From an uncultured bacterium (GTDB lineage Bacteria > Babelota > Babeliae > Babelales > Vermiphilaceae): 64,000 bases of DNA. Below are positions 4,206-61,215 of this stretch, in pieces (position 1 is the first letter of the stretch; every line of letters begins with the position of its first letter). The notes under the pieces are model-generated. The model ran no database searches. It was not told where the DNA came from and saw only the letters and a list, made by a program, of their open reading frames with translations. The position numbers and the translations under genes were made by a program. The stretch lies in contig CAWAHQ010000002.1 of NCBI GenBank assembly GCA_963781925.1, positions 25,364 through 89,363 of the forward strand, in the 5' to 3' direction.

Positions 4206-4245
4206 GCATAGCTTCTATCCTTCGATACACCCTTAATCCCCAACT

Positions 4246-5010
4246 TCATTCCTCCGTTGGGGTCCCCATATGTGATGGAATAGAATATGGGGTAAGGGCA
4301 CTCAGGACGATCGGAAGAATTAATTGTTTATCCTCTTCACTATAGTCAGATTGCATCATATTTTGCAAAAAAGTTATTCGATGAAGAAAAGAATGGTGTT
4401 GTTTTTTGATAGCATGCTTATGGTGCACCGTGCCATACCCTTTATTATCCGACCACCCATAACCAGGAATGGCCTTATCATATAATGCCATCATGGCATC
4501 TCTTGTTACCTTAGCGGCAATGGATGCAGCTGCTACAGAACTTGATCTTCGTTCGCCTTTGGTAAAATAATAGACGGGAATAGTATGAAAATGTGTATCA
4601 GAAAGGTCTAATGGCATTGCATCAGTCAAAATTGCAGATGGCCGCGTGCCAGATGCTTCCAGTACGTGAATAAGCGCTTTCTTCATAGCGATCAATGTAG
4701 CTCGCCAGATATTATGCTCATCAATTGATCGATGATGAACTATACCAATACCATAGTGGCAATGCTTTTTAATCCACTGGAAAGCCTTTTCCCGTTCTTC
4801 CGGCGTCATAATTTTTGAATCTTTAAGCATCCGATGAGGCTTGCCGATGGGTAAAATAACTGCTGCTGCAACCACCGGGCCGGCAAAACAACCTCTGCCT
4901 ACTTCATCAATGCCGACCACAAGCATCTGCCGCTGCCAAGCATCGGTTTCAAATGAATTCTTCTTTATATTGCCTGTTTGTCGCGTTATGGTCATATTTT
5001 TCATTTCCAT
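4246..5010 (-). CDS. rnhB: Ribonuclease HII with a repeat-encoded C-terminal tail
   Basis: VGIDEVGRGCFAGPVVAAAV (RNase HII active-site DEDD region), DSKIMTPEERE, KGYG...H. The last ~17 codons overlap the repeat at 4259-4294. Confidence 0.85.
   Translation of the reverse strand: MEMKNMTITRQTGNIKKNSFETDAWQRQMLVVGIDEVGRGCFAGPVVAAAVILPIGKPHRMLKDSKIMTPEEREKAFQWIKKHCHYGIGIVHHRSIDEHNIWRATLIAMKKALIHVLEASGTRPSAILTDAMPLDLSDTHFHTIPVYYFTKGERRSSSVAAASIAAKVTRDAMMALYDKAIPGYGWSDNKGYGTVHHKHAIKKQHHSFLHRITFLQNMMQSDYSEEDKQLILPIVLSALTPYSIPSHMGTPTEE
4259..4294. repeat. Family-3 hairpin element (GGGGTCCCC...ATGGGGT) inside the rnhB 3-prime end
   Basis: GGGGTCCCCATATGTGATGGAATAGAATATGGGGTA. Same architecture as the copies at 25297, 33863 and 37874. 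Confidence 0.7.
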
Positions 5011-5038
5011 TTGACAAAGTTGTCAAGATGAGTACAAT
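5011..5038 (+). promoter_or_regulatory. Candidate sigma-70 promoter with an overlapping palindromic operator, upstream of the HTH-S24 repressor gene
   Basis: TTGACA (5011-5016), 16-nt spacer, TACAAT (5033-5038). Perfect inverted repeat TTGACAA-AG-TTGTCAA at 5011-5026. Confidence 0.4.
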
Positions 5039-5101
5039 TAGAAATAATACAGTAGTTACAAGATTATCATAAGTATAACCACGTTCGAAGGAGATATAAA
5101 G

Positions 5102-5779
5102 ATGATTTCGATATCAACTCAGCTACGCGTAAAAGAACTTTTGAGAGAAAAAGGCTGGACAACCAAAATTTTAGCAGAAAAAACTGGTATGTCTGAAAGT
5201 TACCTTACTCACATTAAAAACGGTACTCGCCGTTGGAATGAAGATTCCTTCAGAAAATTATCACAAGCTTTTGAAATAAGCCCAATTGATCTCTTTGCAG
5301 AACACCGCCAACGCACAGATGACATCGATAAAAATGTCAGCATGCCAGAACAATCTGATCTTGAATTACAAGTCAAAGTTGTTCCCGTTGTTGGAGAAGT
5401 TCCCTCAAATCCATCACCATATAATAATCAATTGATGCAAGTTACTACTGGCTACAAAGATGTCTTTGTTCCGGTATTCAATTCAGCTGACAATGCAATG
5501 TTTGCACTTTGTGTTGAAAACAACGCAATGGCACCAACATTTATTAAAGGTGATTATTTAATCGTTTCTCCAGAAGTATGGACACGCTCTGGTGACATCG
5601 CTGCCGTTGAATTTGGCAACGATACTCCAATTAAAGCAATTATGCAAGTTACCTATACTGAAGACTTTATTGTTCTTGAATCAGTCAACCATAAACAACC
5701 TCCAATAGCATTGATTCGCGGTAAAGATCATTTCAGAATAATTGGTCGTGTTATTCAACGCAGCCAAAAATTTGTATAA
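5102..5779 (+). CDS. XRE-type HTH plus S24 (LexA / phage-repressor-like) domain protein; catalytic Ser replaced by Ala
   Basis: N-terminal LREKGWTTKILAEKTGMSESYLTHIKNG (HTH_XRE). C-terminal VENNAMAPTFIKGDYLIVSP...PIKAIM...IIGRVIQ aligns to the S24 G-x-S-M-x-P...K pattern. Confidence 0.7.
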   Translation: MISISTQLRVKELLREKGWTTKILAEKTGMSESYLTHIKNGTRRWNEDSFRKLSQAFEISPIDLFAEHRQRTDDIDKNVSMPEQSDLELQVKVVPVVGEVPSNPSPYNNQLMQVTTGYKDVFVPVFNSADNAMFALCVENNAMAPTFIKGDYLIVSPEVWTRSGDIAAVEFGNDTPIKAIMQVTYTEDFIVLESVNHKQPPIALIRGKDHFRIIGRVIQRSQKFV

Positions 5780-5802
5780 TAGTTAAGCGTAGTATTTAAA
5801 AT

Positions 5803-5840
5803 AAAAAAGCAGTCATCTTGTAAGATGTCTGCTTTTTTTT
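5803..5840 (+). terminator. Rho-independent terminator after the HTH-S24 gene
   Basis: AGCAGTCATCTT / AAGATGTCTGCT stem (one mismatch) followed by T8. Confidence 0.55.
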
Positions 5841-58913: not shown

Positions 58914-58918
58914 ACTTA

Positions 58919-59917
58919 TTATGGCCGATGCATTGTGTTATTAACAAACAGAGCCGCGGGTGCATTTTGTTGCAGTGGCAATACTTTTTCTGACCCCAAT
59001 AAATTAAAAATATATTGCACGAATATCGTAAATAAATTTCCAAAAGCTGGTCCTGCAAAGAATGATGCAAATGTTCCCACTTTATTACTCCAGGCCATTT
59101 TTTCTTTTTCGAGCCGATTTCTTTCTATGTCAGGTTGCTGCTTTTTTTCTTCCTGATATTGCGGCAAACTAAAAATTTTTGCACGAAAATTTTTTAGAAA
59201 TTCTTTTTTCTTCTTAAATTGTGTAAGTTCATAGTCTATATTAATAGTTCCGCATGAAACTTGCCCTGTAGATTCGTCATAACCATGCACATAAATATAT
59301 GTTGCAGATAAATTTTTTACTATCATCTTGGCTTTTTTTATTCTGTCTACTAACGCACCAATTTCTCGCGTTGCTTTAATCGTTGAAGGGCAATCACGAT
59401 GAACATCCCCACTGAATTCTAGTCTTATCAATGCTTGTAATTTTTGCTTCGCATCTTCATCATCTTCTATCTGGAGACATTCATTAATCATTTGATAGAC
59501 AGTGACACTTCTTTCATCTCCATCTTTCTTACCAATTTTTTTTTGTTTGAATATCTTATGTTCCGCAATTTTTCTTTTCTCCGCATTATATTGTGTGAAT
59601 CGCTCTTGAGTATTAAATCTATTTGCTAGCAAATAAAGTGCTGACATCGATGCCACCACCTTGCCCGCTCCCAAAACTCTTGAATCCTTCAGCACATCAG
59701 GCAAAGAAGGCATAAAGTCACTTTTGTATAACACCACACAACTACCAATTATCAATGGAATTCCAATTGCTCCCGCTATTGCTTGTTTTCGTGAAATTAC
59801 CAACTCAGAAGGAAATTTTTTTATTTTCTCTATCATTTCCATCATGGCAACTACAGATCCGCACATCGAAAATATAAATGAAAAGACCATTATTTTTTTT
59901 GCTGAAAGCGTGTTCAC
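58919..59917 (-). CDS. Hypothetical membrane protein with a bilobed hydrophobic domain
   Basis: Leader MNTLSAKKIMVFSFIFSMCGSVVA-MME. AIAGAIGIPLIIGSCVVLY - 17 aa - LGAGKVVASMSALYLLA. C-terminal hydrophobic segment. Confidence 0.55.
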   Translation of the reverse strand: MNTLSAKKIMVFSFIFSMCGSVVAMMEMIEKIKKFPSELVISRKQAIAGAIGIPLIIGSCVVLYKSDFMPSLPDVLKDSRVLGAGKVVASMSALYLLANRFNTQERFTQYNAEKRKIAEHKIFKQKKIGKKDGDERSVTVYQMINECLQIEDDEDAKQKLQALIRLEFSGDVHRDCPSTIKATREIGALVDRIKKAKMIVKNLSATYIYVHGYDESTGQVSCGTINIDYELTQFKKKKEFLKNFRAKIFSLPQYQEEKKQQPDIERNRLEKEKMAWSNKVGTFASFFAGPAFGNLFTIFVQYIFNLLGSEKVLPLQQNAPAALFVNNTMHRP

Positions 59918-59973
59918 TGCTAATCCTTAAAAATTTTAGAAAAATATATTTGTTTTTATCGCTACGCGTACTA

Positions 59974-60870
59974 TTATTTGTTACGGCCCCCCAAAAGCCA
60001 TGAGCATAAATCAATCCACCATCGTAAACTTAAGTAACTTCTTACCGATTGAGATTGCTCTGATGCTGCGTAAGCATTAATTTCTGCTGCATTCGCTATC
60101 TTTTGATTTGCTGCAAGATTTTCTTTTGCCAATTTCAAATTCGCTTGGTCTAATTCGAATTTTTGGAACAATAGCAGATCGCTCTTATATTCATCCATAT
60201 CATCAAACCGCGCGTGTGCATTTTTTGCATTGATAATAAACCGCTGAAGACGATCATTAAGATTCTTATGTTCTTGCCATAATTTGAGGTCTGTCTTCTC
60301 ATTAATATAGGGCACTAAAGCATCCAACATTTCACCTGCTATTTTTAGATCAGCTTTTGCAGGAATAAGTTCATTAGCAGCCGTTATCAATGGAAATGGT
60401 TTGACATTGGGAATACTCGGATATTCCTTCTTAATGAGCTTAGCGAACTTTCCATTAAAAATTTCCGTAACAAGTTTTTCATTATATAATTTGCATTTTT
60501 CACACAAAATGGGAGTCGATGCCAATGATGGCATCTCTTTTTTGATCTCATCCTCAATCTCTAGCGCCATTTCCCCATATCTCTTAACTAATAGATTGTT
60601 AGCAGCATTATCTTCTAGTGCTTTGACAATACGGTGCTTAGCTTGAGGAGTATAACGTGATAGCCATAAATAACTGCCCAGCGCTGCACAAGCAATAGCC
60701 GGAAACACAAATCGAGGCTCACTATCTTTGCCCACAAACCCTACGCCAACTGCAGCAATAATAACTCCTGCGCCTACTGTATTTTCAGTTATTATCATTG
60801 CCTGCAAGGAACATTGCAAGACGATTGCACAGAGCATTGCACTCATTTTTCTTGTATTAACAATTATCAT
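59974..60870 (-). CDS. Hypothetical membrane protein with a bilobed hydrophobic domain
   Basis: Leader ...MSAMLCAIVLQCSLQA-M. VGAGVIIAAVGVGFVG - KDSEPR - FVFPAIACAALGSYLWL. Confidence 0.55.
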   Translation of the reverse strand: MIIVNTRKMSAMLCAIVLQCSLQAMIITENTVGAGVIIAAVGVGFVGKDSEPRFVFPAIACAALGSYLWLSRYTPQAKHRIVKALEDNAANNLLVKRYGEMALEIEDEIKKEMPSLASTPILCEKCKLYNEKLVTEIFNGKFAKLIKKEYPSIPNVKPFPLITAANELIPAKADLKIAGEMLDALVPYINEKTDLKLWQEHKNLNDRLQRFIINAKNAHARFDDMDEYKSDLLLFQKFELDQANLKLAKENLAANQKIANAAEINAYAASEQSQSVRSYLSLRWWIDLCSWLLGGRNK

Positions 60871-61090
60871 TTAATTGAAACCTCCAAAAATTCCCATAAT
60901 AATTTCTTTCGATAATAGCTATCATACCATGAAATAAAAAAATATTGCACAAAATAACTCAATCAAAAATTAATGATACTTGTTTTCAAAATAGAGCAAA
61001 CCCCATTCAGCCGACCCGATATTCTTGTATGTTCTTCGCGCTCGTTAGTCAGATAACCATTATCAATTCTTTCAAATGGGTACCCATCTG

Positions 61091-61215
61091 ACCTGTCCGT
61101 CGTAGCCCATGTCCCGCCGACTGTGTGCGCCATAGCCTTGGCGACGGCGTAAGCTTTCGTGTTCTTCGTAGCTCGAAGAGCGAAGTAGAAAGCGAAGGAG
61201 GATGGCGAAGAAGGA
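61091..61215. repeat. Composite GC-rich repeat (family-4 core plus the AGCTACGAAGAAC module)
   Basis: GTGCGCCATAGCCTTGGCGACGGCGTAAGC matches 21969-22003. GTTCTTCGTAGCTCGAAGAGCGAAGTAG relates to 28990-29010 and 40367-40395. Confidence 0.7.

Follow-up and report, generated by a model that had tools for sequence, protein, structure and literature searches.

GC-rich palindromic repeats in a Babelota genome segment and their probable relation to a hairpin element linked to a small GIY-YIG nuclease

The closest published system to the one described below is that of the Ssn proteins, single-domain GIY-YIG nucleases of ~94 amino acids that cut single-stranded DNA beside their own flanking hairpin repeats, called NTS or SRM (Chenal et al. 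2025, PMC11893778). Their cleavage is specific for site and strand and does not extend to duplex DNA or RNA. Copies of these repeats run into the hundreds and are rarely intragenic; Ssn is enriched in symbionts, with Rickettsia listed among the SRM-rich genomes, and has been likened to insertion sequences and to the repetitive extragenic palindromes (REP) with their REP-associated tyrosine transposases (RAYT) (PMC11893778). In Neisseria, Ssn modulates natural transformation (PMC11893778). The present work concerns GC-rich palindromic repeats of an uncultured bacterium of the Babelota, or Dependentiae (Vermiphilaceae), found in a stretch of 64,000 nucleotides (assembly GCA_963781925.1, contig CAWAHQ010000002.1, positions 25,364 to 89,363 of the forward strand), the whole of which is called here the window, and sorted into families 1 to 4 by a preliminary description of the same DNA. 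We consider that gene-less copies of a hairpin element, itself linked to a small GIY-YIG nuclease and owing its spread to this enzyme, probably make up family 1, family 2 and the core of family 4.

Rickettsia palindromic elements (RPE) are GC-rich palindromes that lie in frame in protein-coding genes and are tolerated in surface loops; we know of no enzyme linked to them. As for the small GIY-YIG proteins of the UPF0213 family, we know of no characterised function and of no reported link to dispersed repeats.

The repeats of the window and their hairpin unit

The window has a G+C content of 38% and carries housekeeping genes (archaeal-type valS, ftsZ, ftsA, gatB, rng, alr and gpmI) together with one tRNA-Gly gene. 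A mitochondrial or other organellar source, which clusters of GC within AT-rich DNA might suggest, was discarded in view of the bacterial gene content (ftsZ, ftsA, valS, gatB and rng) and of the matches to Dependentiae genomes. Matches to the four families were found where the preliminary description had placed them and far above chance, and a self-BLAST of the window returned the same loci. With the 28-nt family-1 arm and up to 3 mismatches, 9 matches were obtained for 0 expected; the family-2 termini, with up to 2 mismatches, gave 8 for 0.02 expected. The exact family-3 core GGGGWCCCC occurs 6 times (4259, 11697, 13811, 33863, 37874 and 41460; 0.04 expected), and copies with one mismatch lie at 25295, 23388 and 24436. 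Regarding family 4, when one mismatch was allowed the module AGCTACGAAGAAC gave 3 matches, all of them exact (28998, 40378 and 61161; 0.01 expected), and the module AGCCTTGGCG gave 13 (1.9 expected); the 26-mer of this family is exact at 61129 only, the copy at 21969 differing by an indel. The outer-stem half of the arm matched 24 times and the inner half 19 times, for an expectation of about 2-3.

Full family-1 palindromes occupy positions 10644-10712, 14475-14539, 33999-34066 and 48273-48341, with a composite at 21909-22074; a solo arm lies within valS (36665-36692) and weaker ones are found at 6375-6401 and, within gpmI, at 15548-15571. Full family-2 copies extend over 23425-23580, 28306-28450 and 41076-41229, and halves or fragments over 57989-58042, ~12868-12918 and 4219-4314. 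All copies in the window are intergenic except three or four. The intergenic space had been described as saturated with repeats, which proved too strong a word: the repeats cover 2.05 kb of the 9.7 kb of intergenic DNA (~21%) and touch 20 of the 46 gaps of at least 40 bp.

The count of at least four families was likewise too high. Judged by their sequences, the family-4 core belongs with families 1 and 2 in one superfamily with one arm design, in which the loop GAGCTTGTCGA stands between CCG(Y)TC(R)(Y)CCT and AGG... This design takes the form GCGCTCATCCTGAACTTGTTGAAGGAT in the family-1 arm, CCGTTCGCCCTGAGTG followed by a hairpin and TGTATCGAAGGGT in the family-2 arm, and CCGTTCGYCCTGAGCTTGTCGAAGGRYGAACGG in other phyla. 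The unit measures 33 nt and consists of an 11-bp stem and an 11-nt loop, GA(G/A)CTTGT(C/T)GA. Its conserved loop is GAGCTTGTCGA, or GAACTTGTTGA in family 1, and its conserved 5' stem strand begins with CCGTTCG, or with GCGCTCA in family 1. The palindromes of ~70 bp and ~150 bp are head-to-head doublets of this unit hairpin. Folded as DNA, the 33-mer alone and each half of the family-1 palindromes reach -9 to -10 kcal/mol; folded as RNA, the long palindromes reach -46 to -61 kcal/mol (family 1) and -77 to -128 kcal/mol (family 2), with z values of -8 to -24. The family-1 palindromes can fold in two ways, either as a single long hairpin or as two unit hairpins.

Covariation was assessed on 74 distinct units, drawn from 130 distinct units across 82 sources. 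The five inner stem pairs were nearly always paired, each with 4-30 double-sided changes, and the observed covariation was reached by none of 500 shuffles. Overall stem pairing was 82%, a figure inflated because the units had been pre-filtered to those with 8 or more of the 11 positions paired, compared to 36-47% when the partner columns were slid. Across the same aligned units, sequence conservation is seen in the loop and in the 5' strand of the stem.

Other modules are housed in the loop of the unit, namely, in family 2, variable hairpins; at 21910, the ~95-bp family-4 core; and at 4212-4318, a family-3 double hairpin. In agreement with the nesting first described at 21910, the left arm of this family-1 composite, at 21909, is split by the ~95-bp module, which reads TGCTTCGAC..GCTCAGCAGTAAACACCCGCCTGCCC..AGCCTTTTGGCG.. 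and corresponds to the family-4 core, and the family-2 copy at 41076 does carry AGCCTTGGCG mirrored in both of its arms. At locus L018 (2520-2600), a hybrid palindrome combines a GC-rich left arm variant (GCGCTCGTCCTGAGCCTGTCGAAGGAT) with an AT-shifted family-1 variant as right arm, which suggests an exchange between arm subfamilies.

A GIY-YIG nuclease gene between inverted arms

The arm translations RAHPELVEG and SFNKFRMSA resemble those of repeats beside small GIY-YIG genes; this likeness was used as a lead only, and open reading frames (ORFs) of the GIY-YIG type were searched by tblastn with a generic query. At two loci of relatives, L033 and L022, ORFs of ~95 residues were found exactly between inverted family-1 arms, at an arm-to-ORF spacing of 12-29 nt, and both encode a GIY-YIG domain (Pfam PF01541, E values of 5e-19 and 7e-18). 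Relatives of this nuclease number 3,452 at E ≤1e-5. The five catalytic residues (Tyr, Tyr, Arg, His and Glu) show no variation among the 20 aligned homologues, and the nearest solved structures are the UPF0213 proteins 1zg2 (E 3e-13) and 1ywl (E 3e-11), with a weak match to SLX1. Neither NCBIfam nor PADLOC holds a family specific to the nuclease. Two of its genes, P0005 and P0038, share one contig, and some genomes carry two or more. Where called nuclease ORFs run into an arm, they end in ..SFDKLRTNG, ..HPSTSSG, ..AHPEPVEG or ..LRQAQDER.

The same layout was observed well beyond these relatives. Homologues from Planktothrix, Binatia and Endozoicomonas (~60% identity) have the same inverted arms on both sides. 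The two-sided arm-nuclease-arm arrangement is found at L022, L033 and L042-L045, and at two of the three distant loci (Planktothrix and Binatia) the arms form tandem arrays. Adjoining the Planktothrix nuclease gene, L042 1237-1454 contains the unit hairpin four times with a 61-nt period; adjoining that of Binatia, L045 1789-2057 contains at least seven unit hairpins with a 40-nt period.

Enrichment of the arms was measured on a sample of 80 metagenomic homologue loci, 74 of them evaluable. Across the 80 loci, arm density was 3.18/kb within 300 bp of the nuclease ORF versus 0.15/kb beyond 400 bp, a 21-fold difference. At least one arm was present in 57 of the 74 evaluable loci and the canonical two-sided layout in 25, and in 45 the ORF was spanned by an inverted repeat that matched exactly over 14 nt or more. 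The other families are also met beside the gene: family-2-type arms, including their loop hairpin, flank the nuclease ORF at L093 and L094, a family-4 composite arm stands on both sides of a GIY-YIG gene at L057, and at L051 a family-3 double hairpin sits in the arm loop of an ORF-bearing element. Together with L022 and L033, these loci tie all four families to the nuclease element, family 3 as a nested passenger only.

Two observations on the surroundings of these genes should be mentioned. At L022 (6785-7463), beside the nuclease cassette, a 187-aa predicted membrane protein without family match is encoded between a forward and a reverse family-1 arm, so that the cargo enclosed by the arms is not limited to the nuclease. 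Another GIY-YIG gene, more distant and coding for 81 aa, was met at L002 (4750-5345) just 3' of a tRNA-Arg gene; being of a more distant subgroup and having no two-sided family-1 arms, it was rejected as a canonical element. GC-rich modules and a degenerate arm (CCCTTCGTCAGGCTCAGGATAAAC) are found upstream of it, and it may represent a second nuclease-and-repeat lineage within one genome.

The gene could also be a free-standing homing endonuclease that parasitises the palindromes, in which case it would cut the centre of an empty dyad and be copied in by repair, the palindromes spreading by other means. This explanation is in keeping with the position of the ORF at the exact symmetry centre, since its removal in silico restores a perfect palindrome, the short one of the window; with the small number of ORF-filled copies, which make up 2 of the 41 family-1 loci from relatives; and with the second ORF between the arms of L022. 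We nevertheless hold it to be unlikely. In four phyla the arms stand equally close to the ORF although the arms have diverged, which looks like long co-evolution of one unit; homing does not account for the arrival of hairpins at new sites and within genes; and the Ssn precedent cuts single-stranded DNA beside a hairpin and not a duplex dyad.

The preliminary description had found no transposase in the window and had named a RAYT as a candidate mobilising enzyme to be sought in the genome. Palindromic doublets in high copy number, intergenic and gathered in mosaic clusters that recall bacterial interspersed mosaic elements (BIME), would indeed suit ordinary MITEs (miniature inverted-repeat transposable elements) or REP doublet hairpins (REPINs) moved in trans by a DDE transposase or a RAYT. 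Several results make such an origin very improbable. No transposase domain was detected in the 47 of 63 window ORFs that were scanned, which upholds the first part of the claim, and neither an evident target-site duplication nor, at five family-1 copies, a consistent flanking duplication was found, where a MITE derived from a DDE insertion sequence would have a target-site duplication and a related transposase-bearing parent besides its terminal inverted repeats. In 432 kb of Dependentiae DNA, tblastn with one IS200 TnpA sequence as query, a weak test, returned no IS200/RAYT-like match better than E = 1. Finally, the gene between the arms was that of a GIY-YIG nuclease in every phylum examined, and it is this enzyme, instead of a RAYT, that is physically linked to the repeats.

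Orthologous sites, in-frame copies and a possible mode of spread

The repeats are not confined to the window: a scan of species-representative genomes located the family-1 arm at 41 loci in at least 7 other species genomes, the labelled carriers being all Dependentiae, TM6 or Babeliales; copies of family 2 were found in Dependentiae relatives too. In the nearest relatives, genes are 81-83% identical to those of the window and palindromes 92-94%. The modular palindromic network of the preliminary description is thus real, nested and dispersed, without the saturation or the independence of families 1 and 2 then attributed to it. When five ORF-bearing elements of different Dependentiae-like genomes were compared, homology was confined to arms and ORF, the flanks being unrelated. 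Synteny with L046, L047 and L025 further revealed orthologous sites without the copies that the window carries at 21910, 23425, 41076 and 41458. L025 has neither the composite in its ftsZ-ftsA gap nor the family-2 element upstream of ftsA; at the site of the 41066..41240 element, L046 has no element and L047 a family-3 hairpin; and both L046 and L047 are without the copy located 3' of tRNA-Gly. In the valS-ybeY gap, L046 has no hairpin and L047 has two variants, one of them with an arm nested in its loop.

Copies of the repeats also extend into coding sequences. Among 120 Dependentiae orthologues of ValS, ~95 have no insertion in the loop concerned and ~25 carry varied modules that correspond to family-1, family-2 or family-4 translations; as read from these alignments, the modules are independent insertions into a tolerant loop. 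GpmI is ~6 residues longer than its PDB homologue at the peptide SFDRLRMTG. The C-terminal linker of FtsZ contains SSFAKASSSAKATADMTADA; the two GCCAAGGCT repeats that code for it are similar to the family-4 module, and it is probably a further in-frame insertion. The RNase HII ORF takes its final ~24 codons (..LPIVLSALTPYSIPSHMGTPTEE*) from the family-2/family-3 element, at 4246-4318 (-); as the Pfam domain stops at residue 214 of 254, this tail is repeat-derived. It was also noted that the longest gatB ORF has its ATG start at 48333, within the right arm of a family-1 palindrome (GGATGAGCGCGG). The NCBIfam match of GatB begins at residue 16-25 of this ORF, so that the true start is probably downstream, and the ATG inside the arm could mislead gene annotators.

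One might suppose that the repeats are chiefly RNA or DNA structures useful to the host (terminators, stabilisers of mRNA 3' ends or protein-binding sites), kept by selection and only incidentally linked to the nuclease. The very strong folds of the long hairpins and the conservation of the loop sequence across phyla are compatible with such a role, as is the location of 8 of the 9 family-1 and family-2 copies 40-80 bp past a stop codon. In different species, moreover, two family-3 hairpins keep their place upstream of the same genes (33863 versus L046 9812, and 21818-21850 upstream of ftsZ versus L025 4440-4480) with compensatory changes in their stems, CCCCATTC/GAATGGGG versus CCCCATGT/ACATGGG. 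Yet the presence of most copies varies among relatives, in-frame copies in essential genes make no sense for such a role, a 21-fold enrichment beside the nuclease gene is not incidental, and the T-runs after the stems are inconsistent. Nor is there an Rfam family match: at gathering score only the tRNA was detected, the elements matching generic miRNA-hairpin models far below threshold. A predominant host function appears quite unlikely on these grounds. The role of REP-like RNA structures envisaged in the preliminary description may nevertheless exist as a secondary effect, in view of the strong folds and of the positions past stop codons. It is possible that this explanation and that of homing each hold in part.

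The proposed spread by the nuclease can be pictured as follows. The full-length element, seen in Dependentiae relatives as well as in Cyanobacteria, Binatia and Gammaproteobacteria, has the ~95-residue single-domain GIY-YIG gene set exactly between two inverted units. A cognate nuclease, assumed to be encoded elsewhere in the genome to which the window belongs, would, by analogy with Ssn and NTS, act on single-stranded DNA, where it would recognise the unit hairpin and introduce a nick at this site or next to it. Repair of the breaks by copying from other copies would move the ORF cassette to new contexts and leave hairpin units and doublets at new sites, and the loop of the unit would be the place where breaks capture other hairpin modules such as families 3 and 4. 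Copies in frame would occasionally survive where the protein loop tolerates them, as in valS, gpmI and the linker of ftsZ. The copies of the window are non-autonomous, as neither a nuclease nor a transposase gene was found there.

A number of points count against this proposal. No GIY-YIG gene was detected in the window by tblastn, and its presence in the rest of the genome is an assumption. Linkage by itself is silent on which partner drives the other, and the nuclease could be a homing-type parasite of pre-existing palindromes. To our knowledge, GIY-YIG enzymes only hydrolyse DNA and have no strand-transfer activity, which leaves the insertion step without demonstrated chemistry. The published SRM motif, HGTCWYN(0-2)YYVSBRHN(0-5)WNVSBRGN(0-2)RNCYNB, was matched neither in the window nor within 300 bp of the nuclease at any of the 80 loci, the NTS control being matched, and this mismatch in motif may make the transfer of Ssn biochemistry doubtful. 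A clean target-site duplication could not be defined, filled and empty sites in L025, L046 and L047 being too diverged (~75-85% identity). Family 3 is tied to the nuclease by nesting alone, and its two copies kept in place hint at a separate, possibly host-level role. The pre-filtering of the covariation units mentioned above belongs here as well. We still regard as probable that family 1, family 2 and the core of family 4 descend from the nuclease-linked element.

A broader proposal is put forward only tentatively, namely that the unit and its nuclease constitute a second pan-bacterial nuclease-hairpin partnership, distinct from Ssn/SRM, which would propagate itself through a hydrolytic nuclease and host repair without a transposase and could seed in-frame peptides in essential proteins of reduced genomes.

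The features of the window are collected in Table 1.

Table 1. Repeat elements of the window, with positions, strand and remarks
Feature	Position	Strand	Remarks
Family-1 palindrome, two-unit doublet	10634..10737		arms 10644-10671 and 10685-10712; RNA fold -54.6 kcal/mol, z -10.4; each half alone folds as DNA at -8.8 kcal/mol
Family-1 palindrome, right arm diverged	14463..14547		~80 bp 3' of gpmI stop codon
Composite family-1 palindrome	21905..22085		left-unit loop split by ~95-bp family-4 core
Family-1 palindrome	33988..34082		arm match and fold
Family-1 palindrome between rng and gatB	48262..48350		arm match and fold
Family-1 arm in frame in valS, encoding SAHPELVEGSS	36665..36710	+	arm match
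Arm in frame in gpmI, encoding SFDRLRMTG	15548..15571	-	arm match
Mosaic: solo GC-rich arm (CCGATCATCCTGAGCTTGTCGAAGGA), AGCCTTGGCG module and family-3 fragment	6374..6440	+	
Family-2 element	23412..23590		outer stem, two unlike side hairpins, inner stem, AT-rich centre; fold -77 kcal/mol, z -10.5
Family-2 element, 3' of alr	28297..28458		left arm nearly identical to the GIY-YIG-flanking arm in L093 and L094
Family-2 element, mirrored AGCCTTGGCG hairpin in both arms	41066..41240		fold -128 kcal/mol, z -23.8; directly upstream of a putative tRNA-Gly promoter (TTGACA box, from sequence)
Family-2 half copy, one arm and hairpin insert	57985..58054	+	
Family-2 arm, degenerate	12868..12918	+	
Family-2-type arm, family-3 double hairpin nested in loop	4212..4318	+	
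Mosaic: degenerate arm pair around GC-rich modules, family-3b double hairpin and inner-stem fragment	11560..11765		
Family-3 hairpin	13805..13845	+	GGGGWCCCC match
Family-3 hairpin, core with one mismatch	25290..25335	+	
Family-3 hairpin	33858..33902	+	orthologous site in L046 keeps the hairpin, with compensatory stem changes
Family-3 hairpin between valS and ybeY	37869..37914	+	
Family-3 and family-4 module, 3' of tRNA-Gly	41455..41530	+	no copy in L046 and L047
Family-4 GC-rich module cluster	61090..61235	+	
Family-4 module (AGCTACGAAGAAC)	28960..29035	+	
Family-4 module (AGCTACGAAGAAC)	40355..40405	+	
In-frame family-4-like module of the C-terminal linker of ftsZ, coding for SSFAKASSSAKATADMTADA	20590..20650	-	sequence resemblance only

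Besides these repeats, an inverted repeat of ~225 bp (82% identity) was found at 11335-11555 (-) and 12920-13140 (+), bracketing a PP2C phosphatase gene (11836-12834). Several of its internal hairpins keep their pairing through compensatory changes. It has no Rfam match and no copy in the other loci examined and, as it flanks a phosphatase and not a transposase gene, it was retained neither as a fifth module nor as an insertion sequence; the copy of family "3b" previously listed at 11357 is a part of it. Tandem pairs or triplets of paralogues and ankyrin-repeat proteins are encoded at 7514-9641, 25391-26735, 29054-31039, 34114-35167 and 52599-55749; richness in ankyrin repeats has been reported for Dependentiae (PMC4378268). 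A LexA-like protein with a helix-turn-helix and an S24 peptidase domain is encoded at 5102-5779 (+) of this reduced genome, and could matter if the repeats provoke DNA breaks.

Comparison with described systems

The literature searched (Dependentiae or TM6 repeats; GIY-YIG enzymes with MITEs, REPINs or palindromes; COG2827, YhbQ and UPF0213; repeat-derived peptides) contains no description of the arms and no work on the repeat biology of Dependentiae. The analysis links GC-rich repeats that are very common with a defined enzyme open to experimental test. The translations of the repeats (..VRPELVEG.., ..PFDKLRMSG.. and ..RQAQDER..) form tails on the called nuclease ORFs examined and presumably occur in many "hypothetical proteins". 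The unit hairpin can serve to mask spurious ORFs and wrong start codons during annotation. The repeats reshape essential proteins, namely ValS, GpmI and, probably, FtsZ. By analogy with Ssn, the nuclease and its hairpin are a candidate enzyme/target pair for tools that cut single-stranded DNA.

It is with Ssn and its NTS/SRM repeats that the likeness is closest. In both cases a single-domain GIY-YIG gene, here of ~95 residues and seen in relatives outside the window, is flanked by inverted hairpin repeats in an arrangement resembling that of an insertion sequence; the repeats fall within 20-50 nt (33 nt for the unit described here), form hairpins and exist in many, mostly intergenic copies; nuclease and motif co-vary across phyla; and host-associated bacteria are enriched in such systems. 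The units described here differ in that they mostly form long palindromic doublets, carry modules nested in their loops and lie in frame in essential genes, and the role of Ssn in the transformation of Neisseria has no evident counterpart in the intracellular Dependentiae. The enzymes differ as well. The nuclease is 28-43% identical (37-64 bits) to NTS-flanked Ssn homologues taken from viral contigs, versus 35-44% (54-72 bits) to the UPF0213 structures 1zg2 and 1ywl, and by these scores it is nearer to UPF0213 than to NTS-linked Ssn; in CDD it may belong to cd10456 (UPF0213) or to cd10448 (Ssn). It shares with the UPF0213/YhbQ-like proteins its size and its single-domain build.

Short hairpin units, inverted doublets, high copy number, clusters of the BIME type and an enzyme gene flanked by repeats are features held in common with the REP/REPIN-RAYT systems. 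By contrast, the linked enzyme is here a GIY-YIG hydrolase and not an HUH tyrosine transposase, and some genomes have two or more of its genes. By their description, RPE are similar in being GC-rich palindromes of a small, AT-rich intracellular genome that lie in frame in genes, essential ones included; the difference is that a candidate nuclease is physically linked to the present repeats. Taken together, these comparisons extend the Ssn idea to a different hairpin motif, to a neighbouring nuclease clade and to the Dependentiae: the repeats represent a variant form of the systems of the Ssn/REPIN kind, one whose motif and nuclease clade are distinct and which has in-frame insertions in essential genes.

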